A stretch of DNA of 64,000 nucleotides from Deltaproteobacteria bacterium (GCA_022340745.1 JAJDNL010000239.1:155-64154), one strand, 5' to 3'. Counted from the stretch's first letter, positions 3,328-58,082 are shown. Numbers and translations are program-made. The notes: a model not told the origin generated them from the letters alone.

Positions 3328-3896
3328 AAAATCTTTTCGCCGCCAAATGCTTAAAATACCGTCCCGCCCTGCCCTCTCCAAGTGGATTCCCCACCTGTAT
3401 CTGCAGCGCCAAGCCTCAGCCTAAGCGCTCTGCGCACCAGCAGGCTGCTGAAAAACTCAATATTTTGACTATGAGCATCAGGTCCGTCATTCCGGAAGGC
3501 GCGAAGTCCGCCTGCGGCGGAGAATCCAGTAAAAAAACAGCCCACTGGATACCGGATCTCGACTTCGTCTCGTCGGGTATGACGTTTGGGATTGTTTCCA
3601 GGATTTTTTAGCAGTCTGCAGGGAGCTTCAATATCGAATAAGGAATTTCGAACAGCAGAAGTTTCTAGAAAAAGTAAGACAATGTTTTTCACTTCGATAT
3701 TCTGCGGTTCATATTCTCGAAGACTGGATAGCTGATACTTGAGTGCTGACCGGGGAGACTGATCCGATTTTATGGCTCCTCCAGGGGCTGCCCAGAGCTG
3801 AGTTTTTGGAGCAGGATTTTTTACTCGCAACAAAGCGTTGGCTAAGGGAAGATAAGGGAATATCCCAAAACTTCCAAGGTGTGGTTACGCCTCCGG

Positions 3897-7680: not shown

Positions 7681-7780
7681 AAGCACAAAATCTGAAGGTG
7701 TCGGGTGTCAGGTGTCAGGTGTCAGTGAGGAAAACAAAAAAACTGAAACCTGAACACTGAAACCTGAAACCTTCTCTACA
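7681..7780. repeat. heptamer-built hairpin element (family D): (GTGTCAG)3 arm / A-rich loop / (CTGAAAC)n arm
   Basis: AAGCACAAAATCTGAAGGTGTCGGGTGTCAGGTGTCAGGTGTCAG...AACTGAAACCTGAACACTGAAACCTGAAACC; arms are imperfect reverse complements. Ends 5 bp before the dxr GTG start. Confidence 0.7.
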
Positions 7781-30601: not shown

Positions 30602-30675
30602 GAGGTTTCAGTGTTCAGGTTTCAGCTTTTATTGCTGTATTTCCTGACACCTGACACCCGACACCTGAAACCTCC
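30602..30675. repeat. family D heptamer hairpin element copy, inverted orientation
   Basis: GAGGTTTCAGTGTTCAGGTTTCAG...CCTGACACCTGACACCCGACACCTGAAACC. Together with a partial copy at 30058-30100 it brackets the FKBP-like gene. Confidence 0.6.
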
Positions 30676-31689: not shown

Positions 31690-31873
31690 TAGCCCGGATA
31701 TTTCATGAATGACTTGCTGCGACCACGGATATGCACGTCCTTCCTGGCGTCCTCGGATGTCGGCCCCTGCAACGTACGGTACAGGTACGCCTCGGAACCG
31801 ACACCCTGCGGTTGCCAGGTTGCACGCCCATCTTCGTGGTCTCGCGACAGCAATTCATGAAATATCCGGGCTA
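31690..31873. mobile_element. MITE-A copy (184 bp), terminal inverted repeats TAGCCCGGATATTTCATGAA
   Basis: Perfect 20-bp TIRs; internal nested inverted repeat (TTGCTGCGACCACGG...CTCGCGACAGCAA). Core shares GTACGTCGCA...CGACACCCGAGGACGCC...ATATCCGCGGTCGCAG blocks with the other copies. Confidence 0.75.
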
Positions 31874-32646
31874 GGTTTCAAGGCGGTGACCAGCATACGT
31901 TTGTTGAGAAGACCGTAATCGTCGGCCTTTGGGTGAGAAACCAGAAGACCACCACAGTCGATTTGCTGGAAGCCGCTTTCAGTGAGGAGCGCTTCCATAT
32001 CTTGGGGCTGGAAAAGCCGGGCAAAGTAGCGAACATCTCGGATAAGACCACGTTCTTTACTCAAAACAATTTCCCTCACCAAAACCCCTTCGTCTTGTAG
32101 TTGACGTTCCCGACATACCACCACATCTTCATTGGCCTCGTGCCAACTGCTGGGCTTGAATTGCCGGCGCGCGTAGTCGCTGTGGATTAAGTCAAGGAGC
32201 ACCCTACCGCCTGGTTTCAACAAGCGGCGGATCTCTCGAAGTATCTCCTGGTTCTGGCTGTCTTCTTTGAAGTAACCAAAGGAATTTCCCATAACCAATA
32301 CCACGTCAAAGCTTTCGTCCGCCAACCCTACCCTACAGGCATCACCGCGACAGAAATGTATCGAGGAGTCGATTTTCGTGGCAGCGTGAGAACCCACTTC
32401 TAACAATACCTGCGAGTAGTCAACCACCATCACATTTCTGTAGCCGCGCCTGGTCAACTCGATGGCATGTCGCCCTTGACCGCCACAAAGGTCGAGAATG
32501 AGATCGTCAGTCCTGAGGCTGAGAGTGGCCTCAACCATGTCGACCTCGGTAGCTGTTACTTCCGGGCAACACACACTACGAGCGTCAGTTACAAGATACG
32601 TCTCGTCAAAAATATGTTGCCACCAAGTGGGATCATATTCATCCAT
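31855..32646 (-). CDS. class I SAM-dependent methyltransferase
   Basis: Motif I VLDLCGGQGRHAIEL and motif post-I/II (LKPGGRVLLD). Confidence 0.75.
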   Translation of the reverse strand: MDEYDPTWWQHIFDETYLVTDARSVCCPEVTATEVDMVEATLSLRTDDLILDLCGGQGRHAIELTRRGYRNVMVVDYSQVLLEVGSHAATKIDSSIHFCRGDACRVGLADESFDVVLVMGNSFGYFKEDSQNQEILREIRRLLKPGGRVLLDLIHSDYARRQFKPSSWHEANEDVVVCRERQLQDEGVLVREIVLSKERGLIRDVRYFARLFQPQDMEALLTESGFQQIDCGGLLVSHPKADDYGLLNKRMLVTALKPSPDIS

Positions 32647-34339: not shown

Positions 34340-34424
34340 GAATGTCGGGTGTCAGGTGTCAGGTGTCAGGGAAGAAAAACAAAACAACTGAAACCTGAAC
34401 ACTGAAACCTGAAACCTCTTCTAC
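34340..34424. repeat. family D heptamer hairpin element copy
   Basis: GTCGGGTGTCAGGTGTCAGGTGTCAGGGAAGAAAAACAAAACAACTGAAACCTGAACACTGAAACCTGAAACC; immediately upstream (5' side) of the ATP-grasp gene on the other strand. Confidence 0.7.
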
Positions 34425-37786: not shown

Positions 37787-38041
37787 CGGCACAGCCATTG
37801 AACGCTGACTTGGCCCCAAGGTCTAAGTTTTCATCTTGAAAATGCTCCAGCGAGCGCATTCCCCGTAGCGACACGACTTGAGCGACACGACCTGAGCTCG
37901 TCGACAGGTCTCGTCGACAGGTCTTGCTGCAGGGAGCTTCAATAAATAGAGGAGCTCCCGACAAGGTAATTCTGTGTCTTGACGATTGTTTATGCTAAAA
38001 TGTTGCGGTCTTTTCTACTGATCTAGTCTTGGAGGTAATGT

Positions 38042-39730: not shown

Positions 39731-40158
39731 TAGATAACCCCCACCATCAAGTGAGGCTACGCTAGTTCTATTGAAGCTCCCTGCAGTCCGCCTTCGGCGG
39801 ACTACGGGGAATGCGCTCGCTAGAGCATTTTCAACGCAGAAAATCTGGCGCTTGGGGCCAGTCTTTTTTGATTTATGATTGCAGATTGAAGTGTATACAT
39901 TTTATATTTAAAAGTTGTGAGTTCTTAAATCTAAAATCTGCATTCTAAAATCTAAAATCCCACAGGCAGTCCTAAGCCGGGTCCTTTGGGCCCGGATTCT
40001 TTATTCTCTACCCTCATGCACATGGAATTCTTTGACTTTTTCACTTGATTTTTCCCAAAGCCATGTATTAAATTCGCCTTGATAATCGCCGGTTTCTCAA
40101 AGTGGGTCGATTTCGCTTCAAAGGATTGCTTCCTTGGCCAAAGCGGCGACCTAAAGTC

Positions 40159-40422
40159 TAGCCCGGATTTTTCATGAATTGCTGTCGCGAGACCGAGAGA
40201 CTGGGAACCCGCTTGCGGGACTGAGCGGAGCGCAGCGAGCGCGAAGAGGATGGGTGTACCACCGGGAAACCGCAGGGGGTTGGATCTGAGGTGTACTTGA
40301 ACAGTACGTCGCAAGATCCGACACCCGAGGACGCCCGGCTTCCGGCTCGGAGAGCCTACAGCTCGGAGAGAAGGACAGTCATATCCGCGGTCGCAGCAGG
40401 CAACTCGTGAAATATCCGGGCC
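40159..40422. mobile_element. MITE-A copy (264 bp)
   Basis: TAGCCCGGATTTTTCATGAA ... TCGTGAAATATCCGGGCC termini; core blocks GTACGTCGCAAGATCCGACACCCGAGGACGCCC and ATATCCGCGGTCGCAG shared with the 47315 and 56645 copies. Confidence 0.7.
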
Positions 40423-40462
40423 GAAACGTTATGGGTTAATCTTGAAAAAGGAGGTCAGCGTT

Positions 40463-46919: not shown

Positions 46920-47333
46920 ATGTCTGAAAGACTGATAGAGAAAATCGCCCTGCCAAACGGTTTGATTCTAGAAATCTGGGACACATCTCACCTCATGGCG
47001 GGCGACAGATGGTTGGTCTCGCTTCTCGCCAAGGTGGAAGTCACTGTCTTGCCCGAGTACTTCTCTCCACTTGACGATGGCGAACAGGCTTACCAAGATC
47101 TGGTCGCCGCCCATGGCAACTCTCTGGTTTTTACCCAGGAAAAAGTGAGACTTTTCGTGGATAAAGGCGAAACCAAAGAGGTGCTCACCAGACTGCGCCG
47201 GAGCATCAAGGACAATCTGGCAGCATATCTCGGCAACCCCAAATTTGCCTCGTCTTACGTACTGAAAAAATATGGCGACCTCCGAGATCGCCAGAATTGG
47301 GGCGCCGCCCCCCCTAGCCCGGATGTTTCATGA
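46920..47333 (+). CDS. hypothetical protein, 3' end defined by MITE-A insertion
   Basis: ORF with no family recognised. Its last codons and its TGA stop lie inside the MITE-A left terminus (…GCC CCC CCT AGC CCG GAT GTT TCA TGA). Confidence 0.35.
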   Translation: MSERLIEKIALPNGLILEIWDTSHLMAGDRWLVSLLAKVEVTVLPEYFSPLDDGEQAYQDLVAAHGNSLVFTQEKVRLFVDKGETKEVLTRLRRSIKDNLAAYLGNPKFASSYVLKKYGDLRDRQNWGAAPPSPDVS

Positions 47334-47550
47334 AAATGCTATAGCGAGCGCGTCCTCCGTAGCGACTCGACCTGAGCGACACGACCTGAGCTCGTCGACA
47401 GGTCTCGTCGACAAGTCTTGCTGCGGGGTTAGCGAGCGAATTACAATAAAACGGTACGTCGCAAAGTGCGACACCCGAGGACGCCCAGAAGGACGCCTAT
47501 ATCCGCGGTCGCAGTCCGCCGTAGGCGGAATTCATGAAACATCCGGGCTA
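47315..47550. mobile_element. MITE-A copy (236 bp)
   Basis: TAGCCCGGATGTTTCATGAA ... TTCATGAAACATCCGGGCTA termini; same core blocks. The left TIR supplies the last codons and TGA stop of the upstream ORF 46920-47333. Confidence 0.75.
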
Positions 47551-47632
47551 CAAATGATGCGCTTTTCCCATAGGGAGAAGCCAAATACGGCTAAAATCTT
47601 GTAACCCTAACCGCCCTGCGAGAGTTCTTTCC

Positions 47633-47824
47633 TTAGGCTGCCGAGCGATAACGTCTTTGCTTTCTCTGAATCCTCTTGATCGCTTTTTTGCGTTTGATCC
47701 GTCGGCGCTCACTCTTACTCAGATAATATGTGTGTCTCCGAAGCGCCGGTTGAACGTTTCTCTGAAAATCCTTTCGCAGCTTTTTGATTTTCCTTTCCAG
47801 GGAATCACTCTCAAAGCCGGCCAT
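47633..47824 (-). CDS. rpsU: 30S ribosomal protein S21
   Basis: 63 aa, very basic. ...ALRRHTYYLSKSERRRIKRKKAIKR resembles the S21 core (ALRRFKR...YEKPS..RKR). Not in its usual rpsU-dnaG context. Confidence 0.55.
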   Translation of the reverse strand: MAGFESDSLERKIKKLRKDFQRNVQPALRRHTYYLSKSERRRIKRKKAIKRIQRKQRRYRSAA

Positions 47825-48211
47825 CCACTGTTCACCTCTCTTTCACCATAAAAAAAGCCCTTTTCACAGGGCCCAGCCGCAACTTTCTTTGGCATGAATC
47901 GTTGTAAGGAACTGAACCTCTTCATGGTCTCAGAAGTTATCTACCAAAGCAATCGTGCTGCTGCAGTCCCCTATCAACTTTTTATCTAACATATCCTCTT
48001 GGCAGTGGCAACCCCGCACCCCTCAGGAGTTACTCCATTCCTTTGCTCACTTGGCAGATGATAGGTTGAACCGCAGAATATCGAAGTGAAAAACATTGTC
48101 TTATTTCTTTCAAAAACTTCTGCCGTTCGAAATTCCTCGTTCGATATTCACAAACGACTATTTACTTCACTCCGTATTATAGCGACCCAAGGAAGGCTGA
48201 TTGAATATCTA

Positions 48212-48440
48212 CCACAGAGGCACAGAGATCACGGAGGAGGTTGTTTTTTCCCTGGCCGGGAGACGACGGCCAGGGAAAAGAGCCTCCGCCTTCGGCGAAA
48301 GCTCCTTAACTGGTTCCAACCGATGACATCAAACCACCGGGTTACTTGATCGTGCCCGCAGGGCTGCGATCTTTTGCCCGATCGCCGTCTCCCGATCGGG
48401 CAAAAAAAATATTCCCTCTGTGCTCTCCGTGTCTCTGTGG
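48212..48440. mobile_element. MITE-B copy 1 (229 bp), TIR CCACAGAGGCACAGAG
   Basis: Termini CCACAGAGGCACAGAG...CTCTGTGCTCTCCGTGTCTCTGTGG. Internal hairpins (CCCTGGCCGGGAGACGACGGCCAGGG; TTTTGCCCGATCGCCGTCTCCCGATCGGGCAAAA). About 90 percent identical to the reverse complement of copy 2. Confidence 0.75.
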
Positions 48441-48561
48441 TTAGTAAATAAAAGTGGATATCGAAATCTAGTATTGATAGCATGCGCAGCTGAGGGAATA
48501 GGCGTTATTCAAAATTGAAAACAGGCTGAATCCCGCTTTAATCATAACTGAAAGTGCGGCA

Positions 48562-49353
48562 CTATCCCTTCAGTGATCCTGTAAAATTCGGCTTCCTTTT
48601 CTCCAGGAAGGCCCCAAAGCCTTCGCCAGCATCCTCACTGGCGAAACAGAGTGCAAAAGCTTCCATCTCTAGGGCACAGGCATTCAGCAAGTCCAGGTTC
48701 ATACCCTGATCGATAACGTGCTTGACTGCCTTCGTCGCAACCCTGCCCTTGCTCGCCATGAGGGATGCAACCTTCCTGGTCTCTTCCATGAGTGTTTCAG
48801 GCGGAAACACCCTGTTCACCAACCCCATGTCTTTCGCCTCCTGAGCACTGATCATGACACCGGTCAGGCAAAGCTCTTTGGCCAGGGCCCGCCCCACTAA
48901 CCGAAGCAGACGCTGGGTGCCACCAAAACCGGGAATAATGCCCAGATTAATTTCTGGCTGGCCGAGCTGTGCCGTTTCTGAAGCATAAATAAAATCACAT
49001 GCCAGTGCGATCTCGCAGCCACCGCCAAGCGCGAATCCGTTTACACAAGCGATTACGGGAATGCTCAGACTTTCCAGGGCAAAGAGAGCCTCCTGCCCCT
49101 TTACGGCAAAGTACTTGGCAGAGATAGGATTCAGCTTCTGTAACTCCTTTATGTCAGCACCAGCCACAAAGGCCCTGTCGCCCGCGCCCGTCAAAATAAG
49201 CGCCCTGACCTCCTCATCGTCTGCAATTGTCTTTATGGCCTCACCCACTTCGGTGAGAGTGCCCATTTTAAGGGCATTCAGCACCTCAGGCCGGTTGAAA
49301 GTTATGGTAGCAATTCCCCCTTCTACCTCAAACAAAATATCCTCATACGGCAT
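48562..49353 (-). CDS. enoyl-CoA hydratase/isomerase (crotonase family)
   Basis: ATITFNRPEVLNAL...LTGAGDRAFVAGADI oxyanion-hole motifs. Start at MPYEDILF, preceded by an AAGGAGAGG RBS. Confidence 0.85.
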   Translation of the reverse strand: MPYEDILFEVEGGIATITFNRPEVLNALKMGTLTEVGEAIKTIADDEEVRALILTGAGDRAFVAGADIKELQKLNPISAKYFAVKGQEALFALESLSIPVIACVNGFALGGGCEIALACDFIYASETAQLGQPEINLGIIPGFGGTQRLLRLVGRALAKELCLTGVMISAQEAKDMGLVNRVFPPETLMEETRKVASLMASKGRVATKAVKHVIDQGMNLDLLNACALEMEAFALCFASEDAGEGFGAFLEKRKPNFTGSLKG

Positions 49354-49880
49354 GTTACACCTCTCCTTTGTTAATCTAAGATCCATTCCAATAGCTTTAA
49401 CGATTGAGTCCATAAGAATTGAAATTTTCCTCCATGTCAAGAAAAAGCCGGCTGCAAAGATTTACCCGTTTTTTATCCGGTAAAAAATGGGTAAATCTTT
49501 GCAAAAGTAATACGGCCAAGAATCGCAACGAATACAGACCAGGACATGGGCTTTTCGGTTGATTGACTGGGCCTTGCCCCTATGCTAGTAAAAGAGGCCA
49601 CATCATACTGGCCTGTAACTAATTTAATGCCAGAAGTTCGAAACTAGTGGTTATCTAACAGTCGTTCTTGGATGAATGGAGTAAGTGTCATTTATGATTT
49701 AAGATTGCTGATTGCAGATTGAGACTAAACAGTGCTTATGACTTCGATGCGCAAAGCTCTTCAATCTAAAATCTGCATTCTAAAATCAAAAATCGCTAGT
49801 ACTCCAGCCCATCCTCCGAAGGCGCAACCGGCGACCTCCTATCACTTGGTTGCTTCTTAACCAGTTTGAGGGCTCGATAC

Positions 49881-50918
49881 ATGATTGATCTCCGTAGTGA
49901 CACAGTGACCATGCCTGGCCGGGCCATGCGAGAGGCCATGGTTACAGCCGAGGTTGGTGACGATGTTTTGGGTGAGGACCCCACCATCAACCTTCTCCAA
50001 GATAAGATGGCGTCCCTGCTGGGCCAGGGAGCCGGGCTTTTCGTGCCCTCGGGTACGATGGCCAACCAGGTAGCCATTAAGACCCATATTCAACCAGGCG
50101 ATGAAATTTTAATCGATCAGGATGCGCACATCTATTACTATGAGTGTGCGGCCACGGCGGTAATCGCCGGTGGCCAGTTTCACTGCCTGAAAGGGGACAA
50201 TGGCATCTTGTCGCCTGAAGCCATAGCGGCTGCCATCAGGCCTCCGGACATCCATCAACCTCCATCGCGACTTGTTTGCTTGGAGAATACTCACAACCGG
50301 GGCGGTGGGACTATTTATACCGTAGAGAGAACAACCTCCATAACAAAACTGGCCTCTAGCCAAAACATAAAAGTTCACCTTGATGGCGCTCGGCTTTTTA
50401 ATGCTGCCCTCGCTGCGAGAACCACGGTAAAAGAGTTGACCGGCGGGGTGGATTCCGTTTCCATCTGTTTCTCGAAAGGACTGGGGGCACCCGTGGGTTC
50501 GGTACTGTGCGGTTCCGCGGACTTCATCGCCGAAGCCCGGCGCTTCCGCAAAATGTTTGGTGGCGGTATGCGCCAGGTTGGCATCCTGGCTGCAGCTTGT
50601 CTTTACGCACTTGACCATCATGTGGAGCGGTTGGAGGAAGATCATGAAAACGCCAGGAGACTTGCCTCCGAACTTGCCCAGATGGACGGAATTCAGATTG
50701 AGCCCGAACAAGTGATAACCAACATTGTCATCTTTGATGTGGCTGGCACCGGTCTGGATGCAGGCAGTTTTTCAGACAAACTGGCTACCGAGGGAGTCCT
50801 CACGATTCCCTTCGGCCCCACCACCGTTCGCGCCGTAACTCATCTGGATGTGAGGGCAGCGGATATTGACAGAGCGCTTGAAATCATAAGGCATTTTCTC
50901 AAATCATCGGCCAGATAA
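49881..50918 (+). CDS. ltaE: low-specificity L-threonine aldolase (PLP-dependent)
   Basis: MIDLRSDTVTMP... N-terminus and the beta-eliminating lyase fold pattern. Confidence 0.85.
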   Translation: MIDLRSDTVTMPGRAMREAMVTAEVGDDVLGEDPTINLLQDKMASLLGQGAGLFVPSGTMANQVAIKTHIQPGDEILIDQDAHIYYYECAATAVIAGGQFHCLKGDNGILSPEAIAAAIRPPDIHQPPSRLVCLENTHNRGGGTIYTVERTTSITKLASSQNIKVHLDGARLFNAALAARTTVKELTGGVDSVSICFSKGLGAPVGSVLCGSADFIAEARRFRKMFGGGMRQVGILAAACLYALDHHVERLEEDHENARRLASELAQMDGIQIEPEQVITNIVIFDVAGTGLDAGSFSDKLATEGVLTIPFGPTTVRAVTHLDVRAADIDRALEIIRHFLKSSAR

Positions 50919-50967
50919 GATGTGGGGCCATATCCCCGTGTCGCGTACATGAACCGAGTGGCTTTTC

Positions 50968-51759
50968 ATGAGCGGAATCGTAACCCTACTCACAGATTTT
51001 GGCAGCCGCGACCAGTACGTGGCCGCAGTCAAAGGCGTGCTGTTGAGCATTAACCCGTCACTCAATATAGTAGACATCACCCACGAAATAAGCCCGCAAA
51101 ACATCAAGGAGGCAGGCTTTATTCTGGCCTCAGCCTGCACATATTTCCCGGAAGGGACGCTCCACCTGGCAATTGTGGATCCTGGGGTTGGTGGGGAACG
51201 CCAGGGTTTGGCCGCCGCAACCGAGCGCTATCTTTTTGTCGGTCCTGACAACGGCTTGTTTGACTGGGTTTTTGCTGTTGATCCACCTCATCAGGTTGTG
51301 GTGCTGGAAAACCCTGACTATCAACTGCCGCAGGTTAGCGCCACATTCCATGGCCGTGATATCTTCGCCCCAGCAGCCGGACACCTGTCTCTCGGCATAC
51401 CTTTGGAGAAACTGGGGCCAGCCAGCCATTACCGGATGCATTTCCCCGGCAGACAGATCTTGAGGGATCAGGACAAACTACAGGGAGAAATCATTCATGT
51501 AGATCGTTTCGGTAACCTCATCTCTAATATTGAAATCTTGTCTGCCGGGACCGAAAGAAAGTTGCGGGACCTACAGGTCACTCTCGCTACCGAGCAACTA
51601 CTCACAGGCCCCGGCACCTATGAAGAGGCTCCCCCTTTACGCCCGTTTGCCTTGATTGGCAGCAGTGGTCTCTTGGAGGTGTCAGTCCGTAATGGCAGCG
51701 CCCATAAGGTTACCGGCTGCGGTGTGGGTACTCCAGTACTGGTTCGCCGGCTAAAGTGA
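50968..51759 (+). CDS. SAM hydroxide adenosyltransferase / SAM-dependent halogenase-like (DUF62) family protein
   Basis: IVTLLTDFGSRDQYVAAVKGVLLSINP...IVDITHEI is the DUF62 N-domain signature. Confidence 0.8.
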   Translation: MSGIVTLLTDFGSRDQYVAAVKGVLLSINPSLNIVDITHEISPQNIKEAGFILASACTYFPEGTLHLAIVDPGVGGERQGLAAATERYLFVGPDNGLFDWVFAVDPPHQVVVLENPDYQLPQVSATFHGRDIFAPAAGHLSLGIPLEKLGPASHYRMHFPGRQILRDQDKLQGEIIHVDRFGNLISNIEILSAGTERKLRDLQVTLATEQLLTGPGTYEEAPPLRPFALIGSSGLLEVSVRNGSAHKVTGCGVGTPVLVRRLK

Positions 51760-51864
51760 ACAGCATGGCTTACTCAAAGCTGAGAATCACTTTACCAAAA
51801 CGCCCATGCCATTAACTCCGCATACCATGGATACTAGATTTCGATATGCACTTTTATTTACTAA

Positions 51865-52094
51865 CCACAGAGACACGGAGAGCACAGAGGGAACCATTTC
51901 TCTTGCCCGATCGGGAGACGGCGATCGGGCAAGAGATCGCAGCCCTGCGGGCACGATCTAGTAACCGGGTGGTTCATGCCTACGGTTGGATCTAGGCTAA
52001 AGAGCTTTCGCCGCAGGCGGAGGCTCTTTTCCCTGGCCGTCGTCTCCCGGCCAGGGAAAAAACAACATCCTCCGTGTCCTCTGTGCCTCTGTGG
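51865..52094. mobile_element. MITE-B copy 2 (230 bp), inverted relative to copy 1
   Basis: CCACAGAGACACGGAGAGCACAGAG...CCTCTGTGCCTCTGTGG; same internal hairpins in reverse orientation. Confidence 0.75.
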
Positions 52095-52209
52095 TAAATT
52101 TTCACTCAGGCTTCATTAGGCCGCAACCACACGGAGCAGAGTAAATAGTCGTTTGCAAAATCCGATTAGCAGAAAAGATTCAAACATTAGGGGATTGGGG
52201 GAGCAAAAT

Positions 52210-52914
52210 ATGGCAAAAGATCAGCTCATTGAAGAACTCAAGAAGGCCGACTTGTTTTCTCGCCTGGAAGCTGACGATCTGGATGCTCTGTTGGGAATTG
52301 CTCGGATGCGCCAGATTGACGACGGCGAAATTCTTTTTGCTGCCGGTGATCGAGCAACTGGATTCTACGTGCTGCTCCAGGGCAAGATCAAACTGTATAA
52401 GGTCTCTGCCGATGGAAAAGAATACATTCTGCGAGTGGTGCACAGCAGGCAAACATTTGCCGAGGCAGCCGCTTTCTCCGGGCTCACCTACCCCGTCTTC
52501 GCGGAATGCATGAGCTCATGCCAACTTGTTTACTTTGACGCTAGCGACTTCCGCGCTCTCATCCAACGTAGCCCACAGCTAGCTCTCAACATGATCGCCA
52601 CCATGGCGTCCCTCCTGCAATCCCTCAATCAGAAAATCGAAGACCTCTCCCTCCGAGAAGTTGCGGCTCGGCTTTGCCGTCACCTGCTGACACGAGCCCG
52701 GGATGAACACGGGGAAGTAACTGACGGTATCAGCGTCCAGCTTGAAACCACCAAAAGCGCCTTGGCGGCGAGGTTGGGGACAATCAGCGAAACCCTCTCC
52801 CGGAGTTTTAAGAAGCTCCAGCAGCGCGGTGTTGTGGCGGTTGATCGAGACCAGGTAACCTTGCTGGACTGCGACCAGGTGCAACAGGTTGCTGACGGCG
52901 ATCTCAAGCTTTAG
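52210..52914 (+). CDS. Crp/Fnr-family transcriptional regulator
   Basis: cNMP-binding beta-roll (GEILFAAGDRATGFYVLLQGKIKL) plus C-terminal HTH (TKSALAARLGTISETLSRSFKKL). ATG preceded by a GGGGAG RBS. Confidence 0.8.
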   Translation: MAKDQLIEELKKADLFSRLEADDLDALLGIARMRQIDDGEILFAAGDRATGFYVLLQGKIKLYKVSADGKEYILRVVHSRQTFAEAAAFSGLTYPVFAECMSSCQLVYFDASDFRALIQRSPQLALNMIATMASLLQSLNQKIEDLSLREVAARLCRHLLTRARDEHGEVTDGISVQLETTKSALAARLGTISETLSRSFKKLQQRGVVAVDRDQVTLLDCDQVQQVADGDLKL

Positions 52915-52952
52915 CGAGTGATTTCTATCGGCTTTCCCAGGGTAGATTAGTG

Positions 52953-53681
52953 TTACGCTGCAGCCCATTCATCTTTCTTTGCAGCTGCTTCTAGAACTAA
53001 TCTCATGGTACTGATGTCTTCGATACCTCTTTCGTCGAATTCCATCTGACAATCCCTATATTCAAAATCCCCTTCCGCCCAAAGGGAGATGTCTAAGACT
53101 GCCTCTTGGATCTGATAGCGGATCAATTCTTTCAGGCTGTCTTCACTGATGTACCCCAGATCCAGTAACATCTCCCCTAGTCGCTTTTTTTCTTCCTTGG
53201 TCTTCTCCAGGGCCTCCTCCAATTGTTCTTGGGAAAGCAGTCCTCTATCATAGAGCATTTGCCCCAACCGCTGTCCCTCTCTGCCGCTAGCCGCGACAAT
53301 TTTGCCGTCTTTCAGGCAAATGGCTCTCATTGCCTGCCCCTGTTCAAAGTGCAGCACCCCGGTTCTATTATCAGTTGATAAAATCTGCAAGATAGTAGAC
53401 AGAGCCACTGACTTCAGGTTCCCTCTGAAGCCAACTGGATTCGTACACTTTGAAGATTCGAAGGGGTACTGAACCTGTTGTCGGTCATCAGGACCTCTGG
53501 CATTCCATGCCTCTATAGCGGTCCTTTTACTTTCCATTATGGGGCCTGAGCCGCCACACCAGCAGACCACTGTGAAATAACCTTCAGAACTCTCGGCAAT
53601 ATGCATCCGGATTTTGCCATCTCCGTTCTCTTTTGTCTCACAGAACGGACAGGGCCTCAGTCCCTTCTCAGCATCAGCCAT
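52953..53681 (-). CDS. Zn-ribbon / DUF4388 / MshEN-domain protein (putative c-di-GMP receptor)
   Basis: N-terminal CPFCE...CWCG ribbon (Lar-like) and a DUF4388-like middle (SVALSTILQILSTDNRTGVLHF). C-terminal tandem 24-residue motifs RLGQMLYDRGLLSQEQLEEALEKT / 5-residue spacer / RLGEMLLDLGYISEDSLKELIRYQ fit the MshEN c-di-GMP-binding consensus. Confidence 0.6.
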   Translation of the reverse strand: MADAEKGLRPCPFCETKENGDGKIRMHIAESSEGYFTVVCWCGGSGPIMESKRTAIEAWNARGPDDRQQVQYPFESSKCTNPVGFRGNLKSVALSTILQILSTDNRTGVLHFEQGQAMRAICLKDGKIVAASGREGQRLGQMLYDRGLLSQEQLEEALEKTKEEKKRLGEMLLDLGYISEDSLKELIRYQIQEAVLDISLWAEGDFEYRDCQMEFDERGIEDISTMRLVLEAAAKKDEWAAA

Positions 53682-55630: not shown

Positions 55631-55733
55631 TACCCTCACCCCCTTGTACATTTTTGATTGCAGACTGAAGATTGCAGATTACAAAATCTCAGTGCTGCAA
55701 CTGAGCTCAATCTAAAATCTCAAATCTTAAATC

Positions 55734-56582
55734 TTAAATCTCAATCTTTTCATTATCCTGCGTGCACCCTGGAACTGTCAAGAGCTCCAGTAAATGCTCC
55801 AGAGTGACAACTTCATCCGGCTCAACCAGCCCTCTACGAGCGAGCATCTCTCCGAGGTCAGCAATGGCAGGCACTTCCAAGCCAAGTTGATTAACAAGCT
55901 CCTTTTCCTGTAAGAGCCTGCCTGGAGAGTCGTCGAAAACTAACACGCCATTGTCTAAGGCAACCAGCCTCTGAGCAAGAAGAGCCTCTTCCAAAAGATG
56001 CGTGCTGTGCACCATTGTGCAGGACTCTCTCGCCTGGATGTCTTTCAGGAGGTTTAGTATTTCAGCGCGGCTCCGTCCCGCAACCATACAAAGAGGATCG
56101 TCCAGCAGGAGACATCCTTTCTGCTGTGCCAGAGCGCCAGCAAGGATCAGCCGCTGCTGCTCCCCTCCTGAGAGATGGTGGCTGAAATGTGCCGCCCGTT
56201 CATAAAGATCAACATACCGCAGGGCTTCCTCTACCCGGATTTGAATAGTCTCCGGAGTTAATCCCATGTTTTCGAGACCGAAAGCTACGTCCTCTGCCAC
56301 CACCGGTGAGACAATCTGGTTTTCAGGATTGGCAAAAATGCAGGCTGCAAGGTGGTTGAGTTCTCTTGCAGCAAGAACAGAGCCGTTTATCCTGATCTCT
56401 CCGGCTTGGGGTTGGAGTAAGCCCTTCATTAACTTCAGGAGCGTGGTCTTCCCGCTCCCTGAAGGACCCACTATTGCCACCCACTCTCCAGCAGTAATAC
56501 GCAGATCGAAATCAGCAAATACCGGTTCCTCCGCGCCGTCCTGGTAAGAGAAGGTTACCTTGTTGAGCTCAATACTGACCAT
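55734..56582 (-). CDS. ecfA: energy-coupling factor transporter ATPase (EcfA1-like ABC ATPase)
   Basis: Walker A GPSGSGKTT, signature LSGGEQQRLILA, Walker B LLLDDP. Confidence 0.8.
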   Translation of the reverse strand: MVSIELNKVTFSYQDGAEEPVFADFDLRITAGEWVAIVGPSGSGKTTLLKLMKGLLQPQAGEIRINGSVLAARELNHLAACIFANPENQIVSPVVAEDVAFGLENMGLTPETIQIRVEEALRYVDLYERAAHFSHHLSGGEQQRLILAGALAQQKGCLLLDDPLCMVAGRSRAEILNLLKDIQARESCTMVHSTHLLEEALLAQRLVALDNGVLVFDDSPGRLLQEKELVNQLGLEVPAIADLGEMLARRGLVEPDEVVTLEHLLELLTVPGCTQDNEKIEI

Positions 56583-56644: not shown

Positions 56645-56828
56645 CAGCTCGGATGTTTCACCAATTGGTGTCGCGAGACCGCAATGATGAGTGTGCCACC
56701 GGGCAACCACAGGGTGTCGGATCCGAGGCGTACTTGAACAGTACGTCGCAGGGTCCGACACCCGAGGACGCCCGGGAGGACGATCATATCTGCGGTCGCA
56801 GCAGGTGATTCGTGAAATATCCGGGCTA
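56645..56828. mobile_element. MITE-A copy (184 bp) with degenerate left terminus
   Basis: CAGCTCGGATGTTTCACCAA ... TTCGTGAAATATCCGGGCTA; core nearly identical to the 40159 copy (GTGTACTTGAACAGTACGTCGCA...GGTCCGACACCCGAGGACGCCCGG). Confidence 0.7.
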
Positions 56829-56912
56829 AAATAGAGGGTATGTCATTGACTAATTTATTGATTTAATGGTACTTTAGCCATCGATATACGCAACTGCAAA
56901 GGGTACACGAAC

Positions 56913-57662: not shown

Positions 57663-58082
57663 CCCGGAGAGATTTTAGATTTGTCCTGCGGACTCCCACC
57701 CTTCGGGCGGGTTCCCAGTTTTAGAATGCAGATTTCAGATTTAAAAGCTCAAGACCTTCTAGTGAAGAATGCATTCACCTCAATCTGCAATCTCCAATCT
57801 GCAATCATAAATCTAAAGAGACTGGCCCTGAGACCAGGTTTTCTACGACTAAATAAGATCTAATTCCCCCCACTCCCCCCATACAAAGTGGTAATTTATT
57901 TCCACTTTGTTACCTTTACTTCCCAAAAATTACCTCGCAGTTTTCCCATAAGATCTTTTTAACTATTTGGAATCGTAGAGAAATTTAAAAGATTGCCTTT
58001 TGGCACGGTCTTTGTTTATCAAGGCTTCACTGAGCAAATTAACTCATGCTGACGCCGACAAGGAATGGTACGAGAAGTCCGT

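Follow-up and report, generated by a model that had tools for sequence, protein, structure and literature searches.

Miniature inverted-repeat transposable elements (MITEs) of bacteria include Correia/NEMIS, RUP, ERIC/IRU and the cyanobacterial Nezha. Here we describe a MITE that stands as an inverted pair around three genes, for an enoyl-CoA hydratase (ECH), a threonine aldolase (LtaE) and a DUF62 protein, in a 64,000-nt stretch of DNA from a Deltaproteobacteria bacterium (GCA_022340745.1 JAJDNL010000239.1:155-64154), the whole of which we refer to as the window. As in other bacterial MITEs, the elements in the window are small (230 bp for an inner core and ~352 bp for a longer form), contain no open reading frame (ORF), carry terminal inverted repeats (TIRs) and have strong secondary structure; they recur at many unrelated intergenic sites and are polymorphic between close relatives. 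The outer element is associated with a target-site duplication, and the core with a longer, gene-bearing element that has the same ends. In contrast to the usual bacterial MITEs, a two-layer architecture has been multiplied as one unit, the core has no clear target duplication and a 26-nt TIR that is conserved across phyla, and its candidate parent encodes no recognisable insertion sequence (IS)-family transposase, only a 123-aa GxxExxY protein.

Two inverted mobile copies around cargo-like genes also recall compound transposons such as Tn10 and Tn5. Unlike these, the pair in the window has no shared outer target duplication, each arm having its own; the arms encode no transposase, and the supposed cargo is found in the same place in relatives that are free of the arms. 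We conclude that the two repeats are most probably independent insertions of a nested, non-autonomous MITE that flank conserved genes, and would put the probability of this reading at about 0.85.

Architecture and distribution of the nested element

The first-pass annotation described the repeats as an inverted pair of MITE copies, each with its own TIRs and two internal hairpins, and in these respects it was right. The two cores are 90.9% identical as reverse complements (210/231 in a global alignment), and the same 26-nt TIR, CCACAGAGRCACRGAGNNCACRGAGG, is present at both ends of each. Two 13-bp hairpins lie in subterminal positions in each core, TTTTCCCTGGCCG-GGAGACGA-CGGCCAGGGAAAA and TTTTGCCCGATCG-CCGTCTCC-CGATCGGGCAAAA, with the loops GGAGACGA and GGAGACGG. 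The repeated unit, given originally as 230 bp, extends in fact over ~352 bp (48154-48505 and 51801-52152). The two copies and their flanks are made up as follows.

48154..48505, plus strand: left long (nested) MITE, with outer arms 48154-48211 and 48441-48505 around the core; ends ACGAC...GGCGT
48212..48440, plus strand: core MITE, copy 1; 26-nt TIRs of three CACRGAG sub-repeats, two subterminal hairpins, no ORF
51801..52152, minus strand: right long (nested) MITE, in inverted orientation
51865..52094, minus strand: core MITE, copy 2; the same core in inverted orientation
48145..48153, no strand: target-site duplication of the left copy, left half (TATTCACAA); 8/9 match to 48506-48514
48506..48514, no strand: target-site duplication of the left copy, right half (TATTCAAAA); partner of 48145-48153
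51792..51800, no strand: degenerate target-site duplication of the right copy, inner half (TTTACCAAA); 6/9 match to its partner
52153..52161, no strand: degenerate target-site duplication of the right copy, outer half (TTGCAAAAT); partner of 51792-51800

Homology between the two arms passes beyond the core TIRs, covering ~48151-48518 on the left and 51787-52155 on the right. When 19 long copies are aligned with MAFFT, homology stops at the ends ACGACTATTTACT.../...ATAGGCGT, outside which the flanks are unrelated. These ends form an imperfect outer TIR of ~25 nt (AACGACTATTTACTTCACTCCG), and one outer arm is itself an imperfect inverted repeat of the other (AACGACTATTTACTTYACTCCGTAT compared with ATGCGGAGCTAAGGGAATAGGCGTT as its reverse complement). 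In 7/19 long copies at least eight of the nine flanking bases match, a level reached by only 0.3% of mismatched control pairs; the match is 9/9 in contigs L137 and L190 and 8/9 in the left window copy. Because the long form has fixed ends, TIRs of its own and flank duplication above that of the controls, it is a nested MITE, in which an outer element with an 8-9-bp target duplication holds the CCACAGAG core. Where the core occurs alone its flanks are unrelated, and there is no consistent direct target duplication among the core-only loci; the core flanks tend instead to extend the inverted repeat (TTCA...TGAA).

The core ends are recognisable by the 16-mer CCACAGAGGCACAGAG. This sequence or a two-mismatch variant of it occurs at exactly four sites in the window, 48212(+), 48425(-), 51865(+) and 52079(-), which are the four core ends; shuffling of the window gives an expectation of 0.67 such sites, and four were reached in 0/100 shuffles. 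The element is also far more structured than its shuffled counterparts, with folding z-scores of -6.4 as DNA and -8.7 as RNA. The only ORFs listed within the core (229-230 bp) or the long form (~352 bp) are spurious overlapping ones, and an Rfam E-value search of 47000-53000 gave no match to the MITE, returning only chance microRNA-like matches on a palindrome at 49453-49503, between two of the bracketed genes. The GC hairpins are flanked by T and A runs, and a role as bidirectional terminators was considered and rejected, a terminator scan finding none inside either copy; on both strands the T-run lies 5′ and the A-run 3′ of the hairpins, an arrangement that merely lengthens the stem.

The family is widespread. 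When metagenome contigs were scanned with the left hairpin, CTGGCCGGGAGACGACGGCCAG, at least 120 were found to carry the core hairpin, several of them, according to their record names, in sediment metagenome assemblies. Alignment of the left arm by blastn to the 120 metagenome contigs listed gives two recurrent classes of endpoint, one for the long form (48152 to 48506/48517) and one for the core alone (48211 to 48441). A contig of a metagenome-assembled genome placed in the Syntrophobacterales by GTDB (L083) has the core with ~13 nt on its left side and the right outer arm; its gene context is wholly different from that of the window. With TIRs, small size, no coding capacity, many unrelated loci, duplications of the target and presence/absence polymorphism, the original designation of the repeats as MITEs stands.

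Probable independent insertions beside an ancestral gene block

Relatives of the locus were reached through homologues of DUF62 and ECH, as look-ups of the three proteins by exact sequence gave no match. Their nucleotide identity to the window, gene content and the length of the gap between DUF62 and the following Crp/Fnr-family regulator (Crp) are given below.

Window: order ECH(-), LtaE(+), DUF62(+), Crp(+); DUF62-Crp gap 450 nt
L121, 98% identity: LtaE, DUF62, Crp, DUF4388; gap 118 nt
L123, 90% identity: LtaE, DUF62, Crp, DUF4388; gap 23 nt
L122, 87% identity: as L121, with ECH and POR genes to the left; gap 72 nt
L124, 87% identity: as L121, with ECH; gap 72 nt

Five related contigs (L121, L122, L123, L124 and L245; 87-98% nucleotide identity) thus hold the same genes in the same order and context without the repeats, contrary to the first-pass view of the three genes as a cassette. 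The orthologues of ECH lie at the same position in the relatives, with 87-97% identity; downstream of them the MITE is absent from L122, L124, L245 and L246. The right copy is absent from L121, L122, L123 and L124 and is present at the same site in L179, an orthologous fragment that is 89% identical over 1681 bp. Since the relatives hold the same order without the element, the three genes are an ancestral syntenic block to which the repeats were added later.

The closest relative provides an empty site for the right copy. The alignment of L121 to the window, at 98%, breaks off at 51789 and resumes at 52195; a single TATAAAA in L121 corresponds to TACCAAA-element-TGCAAAA in the window. At this site L179 has TACAAAA-element-TACAAAA, an exact 8-bp duplication (8/9 flank match). 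Between the two aligned segments L121 has 73 nt of its own (L121:1785-1857) in place of window positions 51790-52194, so that the rest of the DUF62-Crp intergenic allele is also quite different, beyond the missing MITE; the allele in the window is common to the more distant L179, not to L121. This difference hints at recombination, or at excision that left a footprint.

The two copies also have separate histories. Over the long form they are 87.1% identical to each other, whereas the left copy is closer to that of L216 (91%) and the right copy to those of L179 (93%) and L204 (90%), and each is ~92-93% identical to the family consensus. Such a star-like pattern of divergence is that of MITE amplification. 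Two events rather than one are indicated: each copy has its own duplication in cis, the outer flanks are unlike each other, and closer copies are found elsewhere.

A probable sequence of events can be outlined. The outer MITE, with its ~25-nt imperfect TIRs, duplicates 8-9 bp of AT-rich target. The 230-bp CCACAGAG-TIR core, itself probably a gene-less deletion derivative of a ~0.6-kb GxxExxY element with the same TIRs and subterminal hairpins, would have come to lie inside the outer MITE, and the composite would then have multiplied as a unit, presumably moved in trans by a transposase that recognises the outer ends. Both copies in the window would have landed in fast-evolving intergenic regions beside the ancestral ECH(-), LtaE(+), DUF62(+), Crp(+) block.

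Several observations weigh against this account. The insertion between DUF62 and Crp is patchy, being present in the window and in L179 (89%) and absent from L121 (98%). The element may have been lost or excised in several lineages, recombination may have replaced the intergenic allele, or a preferred site may have been used more than once; under all three the conclusion that the genes are not a mobile cassette is the same. The elements of the window and L179 are 92.8% identical (94.8% in the core), whereas the flanking genes are only 87-91% identical, and simple neutral descent does not predict an element less diverged than the genes beside it. The empty site of the left copy could not be aligned, the region downstream of ECH being unrelated in every relative. 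Among the loci examined, all of which had been chosen for having the core, none shows the outer MITE by itself, and no transposase for the outer element or the core, nor any gene-bearing partner of the outer element, was found. Finally, the orientation of the segment is known from the assembled sequence alone, and a mixture of orientations in the source population is possible.

This last point bears on the suggestion that the repeats mediate inversion, in which recombination between the arms would flip the 3.3-kb segment, as a switch or as a source of rearrangement. The arms are indeed inverted and share exact runs of up to 52 nt, in principle enough for RecA-dependent recombination, and we regard this as the most durable of the alternatives, albeit an improbable one. 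The arms are only 87% identical. No recombinase is found by Pfam among the three bracketed genes and five neighbours, or among the called genes of the 12.6-kb contig L122, which is collinear with the window from 45.2 to 59.3 kb. The orientations of the genes match those in the repeat-free relatives and so represent the ancestral state. The duplicated flanks pair in cis, and the left-outer flank matches the reverse complement of the right-inner flank at only ~4/9 positions; on these grounds there has been no net inversion since insertion, and the inversion reading is left without support.

Even less probable is a composite mobilisable unit, in which the inverted copies would be the ends of a compound transposon that brought the three genes in. 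Its attraction lies in the arrangement itself, ~352-bp inverted copies around exactly three genes of unrelated function, as in the build of a compound transposon. Yet in the five repeat-free contigs neither the order nor the orientation of these genes, nor the neighbours at either side, differ from those in the window, so that the cargo exists without the arms. Each copy, moreover, has its own flanking duplication (8/9 in cis for the left copy), whereas the outer flanks of the pair, TATTCACAA and TTGCAAAAT, match at only ~3/9 positions and give no outer target duplication; and the right copy alone is common to the window and L179. A local inverted duplication, by which one copy gave rise to the other across the genes, as the sharing of flanks beyond the 230-bp core suggests at first sight, can be dismissed as scarcely credible. 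These flanks belong to the ~352-bp mobile unit and recur with it in many contigs in unrelated surroundings; for each copy there are others elsewhere that resemble it more than its partner does, and each has a target duplication of its own.

The bracketed genes, their neighbours and other repeats

Searches with Pfam and NCBIfam bear out the earlier identification of exactly three genes between the copies and of their neighbours, an S21-like ORF on the left and, on the right, a Crp/Fnr regulator.

47633..47824, minus strand: left neighbour, gene for an S21-like small ribosomal protein; TIGR00030 31.9 bits against a cut-off of 28.95, Pfam Ribosomal_S21 weak
48562..49353, minus strand: enoyl-CoA hydratase (ECH) of the crotonase family; PF00378, E = 1e-75
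49453..49503, no strand: palindrome with 23-nt arms (TGCAAAGATTTACCCGTTTTTTA / TAAAAAATGGGTAAATCTTTGCA), 96% complementary, in the divergent ECH/LtaE intergenic region and outside the MITEs
49881..50918, plus strand: low-specificity L-threonine aldolase / GntG-family aldolase dependent on pyridoxal phosphate (PLP); PF01212 (Beta_elim_lyase), E = 3e-107
50968..51759, plus strand: DUF62 protein of the S-adenosylmethionine (SAM) hydroxide adenosyltransferase / (R)-SAM hydrolase type (SAM_HAT); PF01887 and PF20257
52210..52914, plus strand: right neighbour, Crp/Fnr-family regulator; PF00027 and PF13545
48067..48148, no strand: unrelated 82-nt repeat abutting the left insertion site; 90% inverted match to 3630-3711

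The juxtaposition of a DUF62 protein and a threonine aldolase had raised the question of a halogenase or fluorothreonine-like pathway, in which the two would form a functional pair tied to fluorometabolite biosynthesis. DUF62 is the superfamily of the fluorinase and the chlorinase, and the two genes are adjacent and co-oriented, an adjacency kept in L121-L124. The proteins themselves make such a pathway highly unlikely. The fluorinase equivalog TIGR04507 matches the DUF62 protein in two partial stretches, with 60.2 bits against a cut-off of 400, whereas the best NCBIfam models are those of (R)-SAM hydrolases (219 and 140 bits). Among structures in the Protein Data Bank (PDB), the Thermus protein 2cw5 scores highest (168 bits), followed by PH0463 (124), the chlorinase SalL (99) and the fluorinase FlA (73, partial). 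An Asp-Arg-His triad, which from the work on PH0463 we take to be a mark of the hydroxide adenosyltransferases, is present, Asp71, Arg78 and His128 aligning with Asp68, Arg75 and His127 of PH0463. The protein, at 263 aa, also has none of the extra length of the fluorinases (PDB chains of at least 299 aa). It resembles the group of PH0463, Thermus 2cw5 and MJ1651 in matching both Pfam domains over their full length and in keeping the triad; it differs from the named (R)-SAM hydrolase orthologues in falling below the equivalog cut-off (219 against 350), and is a member of the family only. By these comparisons it is an ordinary SAM hydrolase, and the fluorinase or halogenase suggestion is not supported.

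The proposed link to fluorothreonine fares no better. Fluorothreonine transaldolase is a much larger PLP enzyme, similar to serine hydroxymethyltransferase and fused to an aldolase-like domain. The aldolase in the window has 345 aa and a single PF01212 domain, and scores above the cut-off for both the GntG-family model (NF041359, 431 bits against 230) and the LtaE model (NF007825, 324 against 312), as an ordinary LtaE/GntG-type enzyme does. No other pathway genes are present. In L246:1809-3575, which is 90-93% identical in the shared genes, DUF62 is absent and LtaE lies 24 nt from Crp. Since L246 has no DUF62 beside LtaE, their pairing is not obligatory. The same contig has a ROK-family gene after ECH.

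The three bracketed genes are ordinary housekeeping or metabolic genes, vertically inherited, and the insertions would have no functional link to them. The palindrome at 49453-49503 has the look of an operator site in the promoter region between the divergent ECH and LtaE genes, and is kept in L123 and L124 at 88-95%.

The source genome is unusually rich in small repeats. The 82-nt repeat beside the left copy is also found, at ~91%, in metagenome contigs L156, L194, L182 and L133. Runs of short repeats resembling AATCTAAAATCTGCATTCTAAAATC are common to the intergenic regions at 49741-49794, 39899-39959, 55701-55754 and 57781-57820. A further family, at 7697, 30072, 30658(-), 34348 and 37731, consists of three GGTGTCAGG units, an A-rich spacer and CTGAAACCTGAACACTGAAACC, with an ATG closely downstream in at least the copy at 34348; an inverted pair of this family, 30603-30668 / 34345-34410, brackets ~3.7 kb. 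Other multi-copy intergenic repeats, with 85-90% identity, lie at 47315-47550, 37834-37934, 40249-40426, 56686-56831 and 31690-31877, and include a perfect 20-nt inverted repeat at 47315/47531.

A GxxExxY element with the ends of the core

The most direct information on the origin of the core comes from contig L267. A 618-bp unit there (883-1500) has both TIRs, both hairpins and one 123-aa GxxExxY ORF (PF13366, of the PD-(D/E)XK type). Nucleotides 1-90 of the core match nucleotides 1-91 of this element at 88%, and core nucleotides 142-229 match element positions 531-618 at 82%. A unit of ~650 bp in L240 (5075-5719), for which L267 is the orthologous locus in an intact version, matches the window core at 88-89% over its first 92 nt and last 72 nt, and its 123-aa GxxExxY ORF reaches 156 bits with the model TIGR04256 (cut-off 35). 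The relation between the core and the L267 element is the usual one between a MITE and its gene-bearing relative. No GxxExxY ORF is present in the window copies or, by a signature scan, anywhere else in the window; on this basis the copies are gene-less derivatives rather than full members of the GxxExxY element.

The same TIRs are found across phyla. A scan of the 26-nt pattern over one genome per species gave at least 120 loci, those listed being in Acidobacteriota, cyanobacteria, Planctomycetota, Verrucomicrobiota, Chloroflexota, Myxococcota, Bacteroidota, Proteobacteria and Methanothrix. Most of the matches listed are short palindromic elements of 52-260 bp. In the 120 genome loci listed, unrelated genes of housekeeping function account for most of the ORFs beside the motif; as a rule the motif is a hairpin without a gene, and a minority of the loci have GxxExxY. 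Four loci among these matches (L019, L033, L037 and L107) have TIRs 435-551 bp apart around exactly one gene, which is GxxExxY, and a Methanothrix contig (L117) has one TIR beside a GxxExxY gene; TIGR04256 (cut-off 35) gives 146-158 bits for these five proteins. TIRs are also present in all three loci reached through close homologues of the protein (L257, L267 and L268). Altogether, GxxExxY genes bracketed by 25-30-nt TIRs with three CACRGAG-type sub-repeats are found in L267, L240, L247, L248, L249, L257, L268, L019, L033, L037 and L107, from Bacteroidota, Acidobacteriota, Planctomycetota and Thermodesulfobacteriota, with a different dialect in Alphaproteobacteria.

Loci chosen by the motif could give a biased picture, and a protein-first control was made against such selection, in which a tblastn search of plasmid records gave eight GxxExxY genes. 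On either side of the three closest are inverted repeats of 25-30 nt that share this build: TTCACCACAGAGGACGCAGAGGACACGGAG in Bacteroides finegoldii, a CACAGAG variant in Bernardetia and TTCACGCGAAGGCGCGAGGACGCGA in Sphingomonas parapaucimobilis. The distant plasmid homologues (at most 44% identity) have direct repeats or no clear repeats. The association with TIRs is a property of a large GxxExxY subfamily and not of the whole Pfam family. The unit in B. finegoldii is embedded in an operon, at the radA locus. In S. parapaucimobilis the unit lies between fabD and fabG, which are adjacent in S. paeninsulae and other Alphaproteobacteria; the S. paeninsulae fabD-fabG region, without the unit, is too diverged at 74% identity to define a duplication. 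A Phocaeicola locus considered as a candidate empty site has a different gene there instead.

Sister dialects of the TIR, with the same three-sub-repeat build in other words, are CGCGAAGG, CACGAAGG and CGCGGAGG, found at L249:568-592 and 980-1004 and also in L071, L049, L085 and L116. The GxxExxY gene is co-oriented with both flanking genes in 10/10 loci with called neighbours (L247, L248, L249, L251, L253, L254, L257, L267, L268 and L240), often tight inside operons. In sequence the proteins retain a D...E.K nuclease motif, as in YRLD...VELK.

The hairpins too are shared with the gene-bearing units. The 3′ hairpin in L268 keeps the loop, and its stem is compensated. In the subterminal hairpins of the window (48250-48275 and 48374-48399) and of L268 (~1440-1470) the loop GGAGACG(A/G) is constant, and the stems, CCCTGGCCG, GCCCGATCG and ATCCAATCG, differ in a compensated manner. 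Retention of the loop while the stems vary with compensation suggests that the subterminal hairpin and its loop may be under selection.

A partial parallel is offered by the ORF-bearing intervening sequences of 23S rRNA, which are small selfish ORFs within host transcripts. Like these, the GxxExxY units are tiny, bounded by inverted repeats that could form a long RNA stem, and situated inside co-oriented operons; unlike them, they lie between protein-coding genes, and their protein is of a different family. Full-text literature searches for the TIR sequence and its sub-strings gave nothing relevant, and those for the GxxExxY family gave incidental mentions only, in which the TIR-bounded element is not described. 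PF13366/GxxExxY has been reported to form mixed clades with "multiple transfers", its function being "unknown" (PMC3424549).

The sequence comparisons thus associate the core with cross-phylum, TIR-bounded mini-elements whose only gene is GxxExxY. From this we infer that the protein may drive mobility, and that the element may be one not described so far. A fuller proposal, which we offer tentatively and hold to be possible rather than probable, is that the core and hundreds of short hairpins with the same ends, in many phyla of bacteria and in Methanothrix, are non-autonomous forms of a minimal element of 0.45-0.65 kb, as yet undescribed, whose only gene, a GxxExxY gene of ~125 aa, encodes a protein that recognises the triple CACRGAG sub-repeats and drives the spread of the element. 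The unit would sit co-oriented in host operons and need read-through, and the dialects (CGCGAAG in Sphingomonas; CACGAAG and CGCGGAG elsewhere) would reflect co-evolution of protein and DNA.

For the window itself the finding is an ordinary one that matters little beyond disposing of a false lead: there is neither a mobile cassette nor a switch nor a halogenase pathway at this locus. We are left with MITEs piling up in variable regions between genes, in a Syntrophobacterales-like genome that is rich in repeats. Of potentially greater consequence is the side result, PF13366/GxxExxY being a very large family in Bacteria and Archaea with no assigned function. If GxxExxY genes are generally packaged in inverted repeats with MITE offspring, the family would gain a role that can be tested, namely that of nuclease in a selfish element. 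Such a role would also explain many hitherto unexplained short palindromic repeats in the genomes of Acidobacteriota, Planctomycetota, cyanobacteria and Bacteroidota, and would supply a defined DNA substrate for GxxExxY biochemistry.

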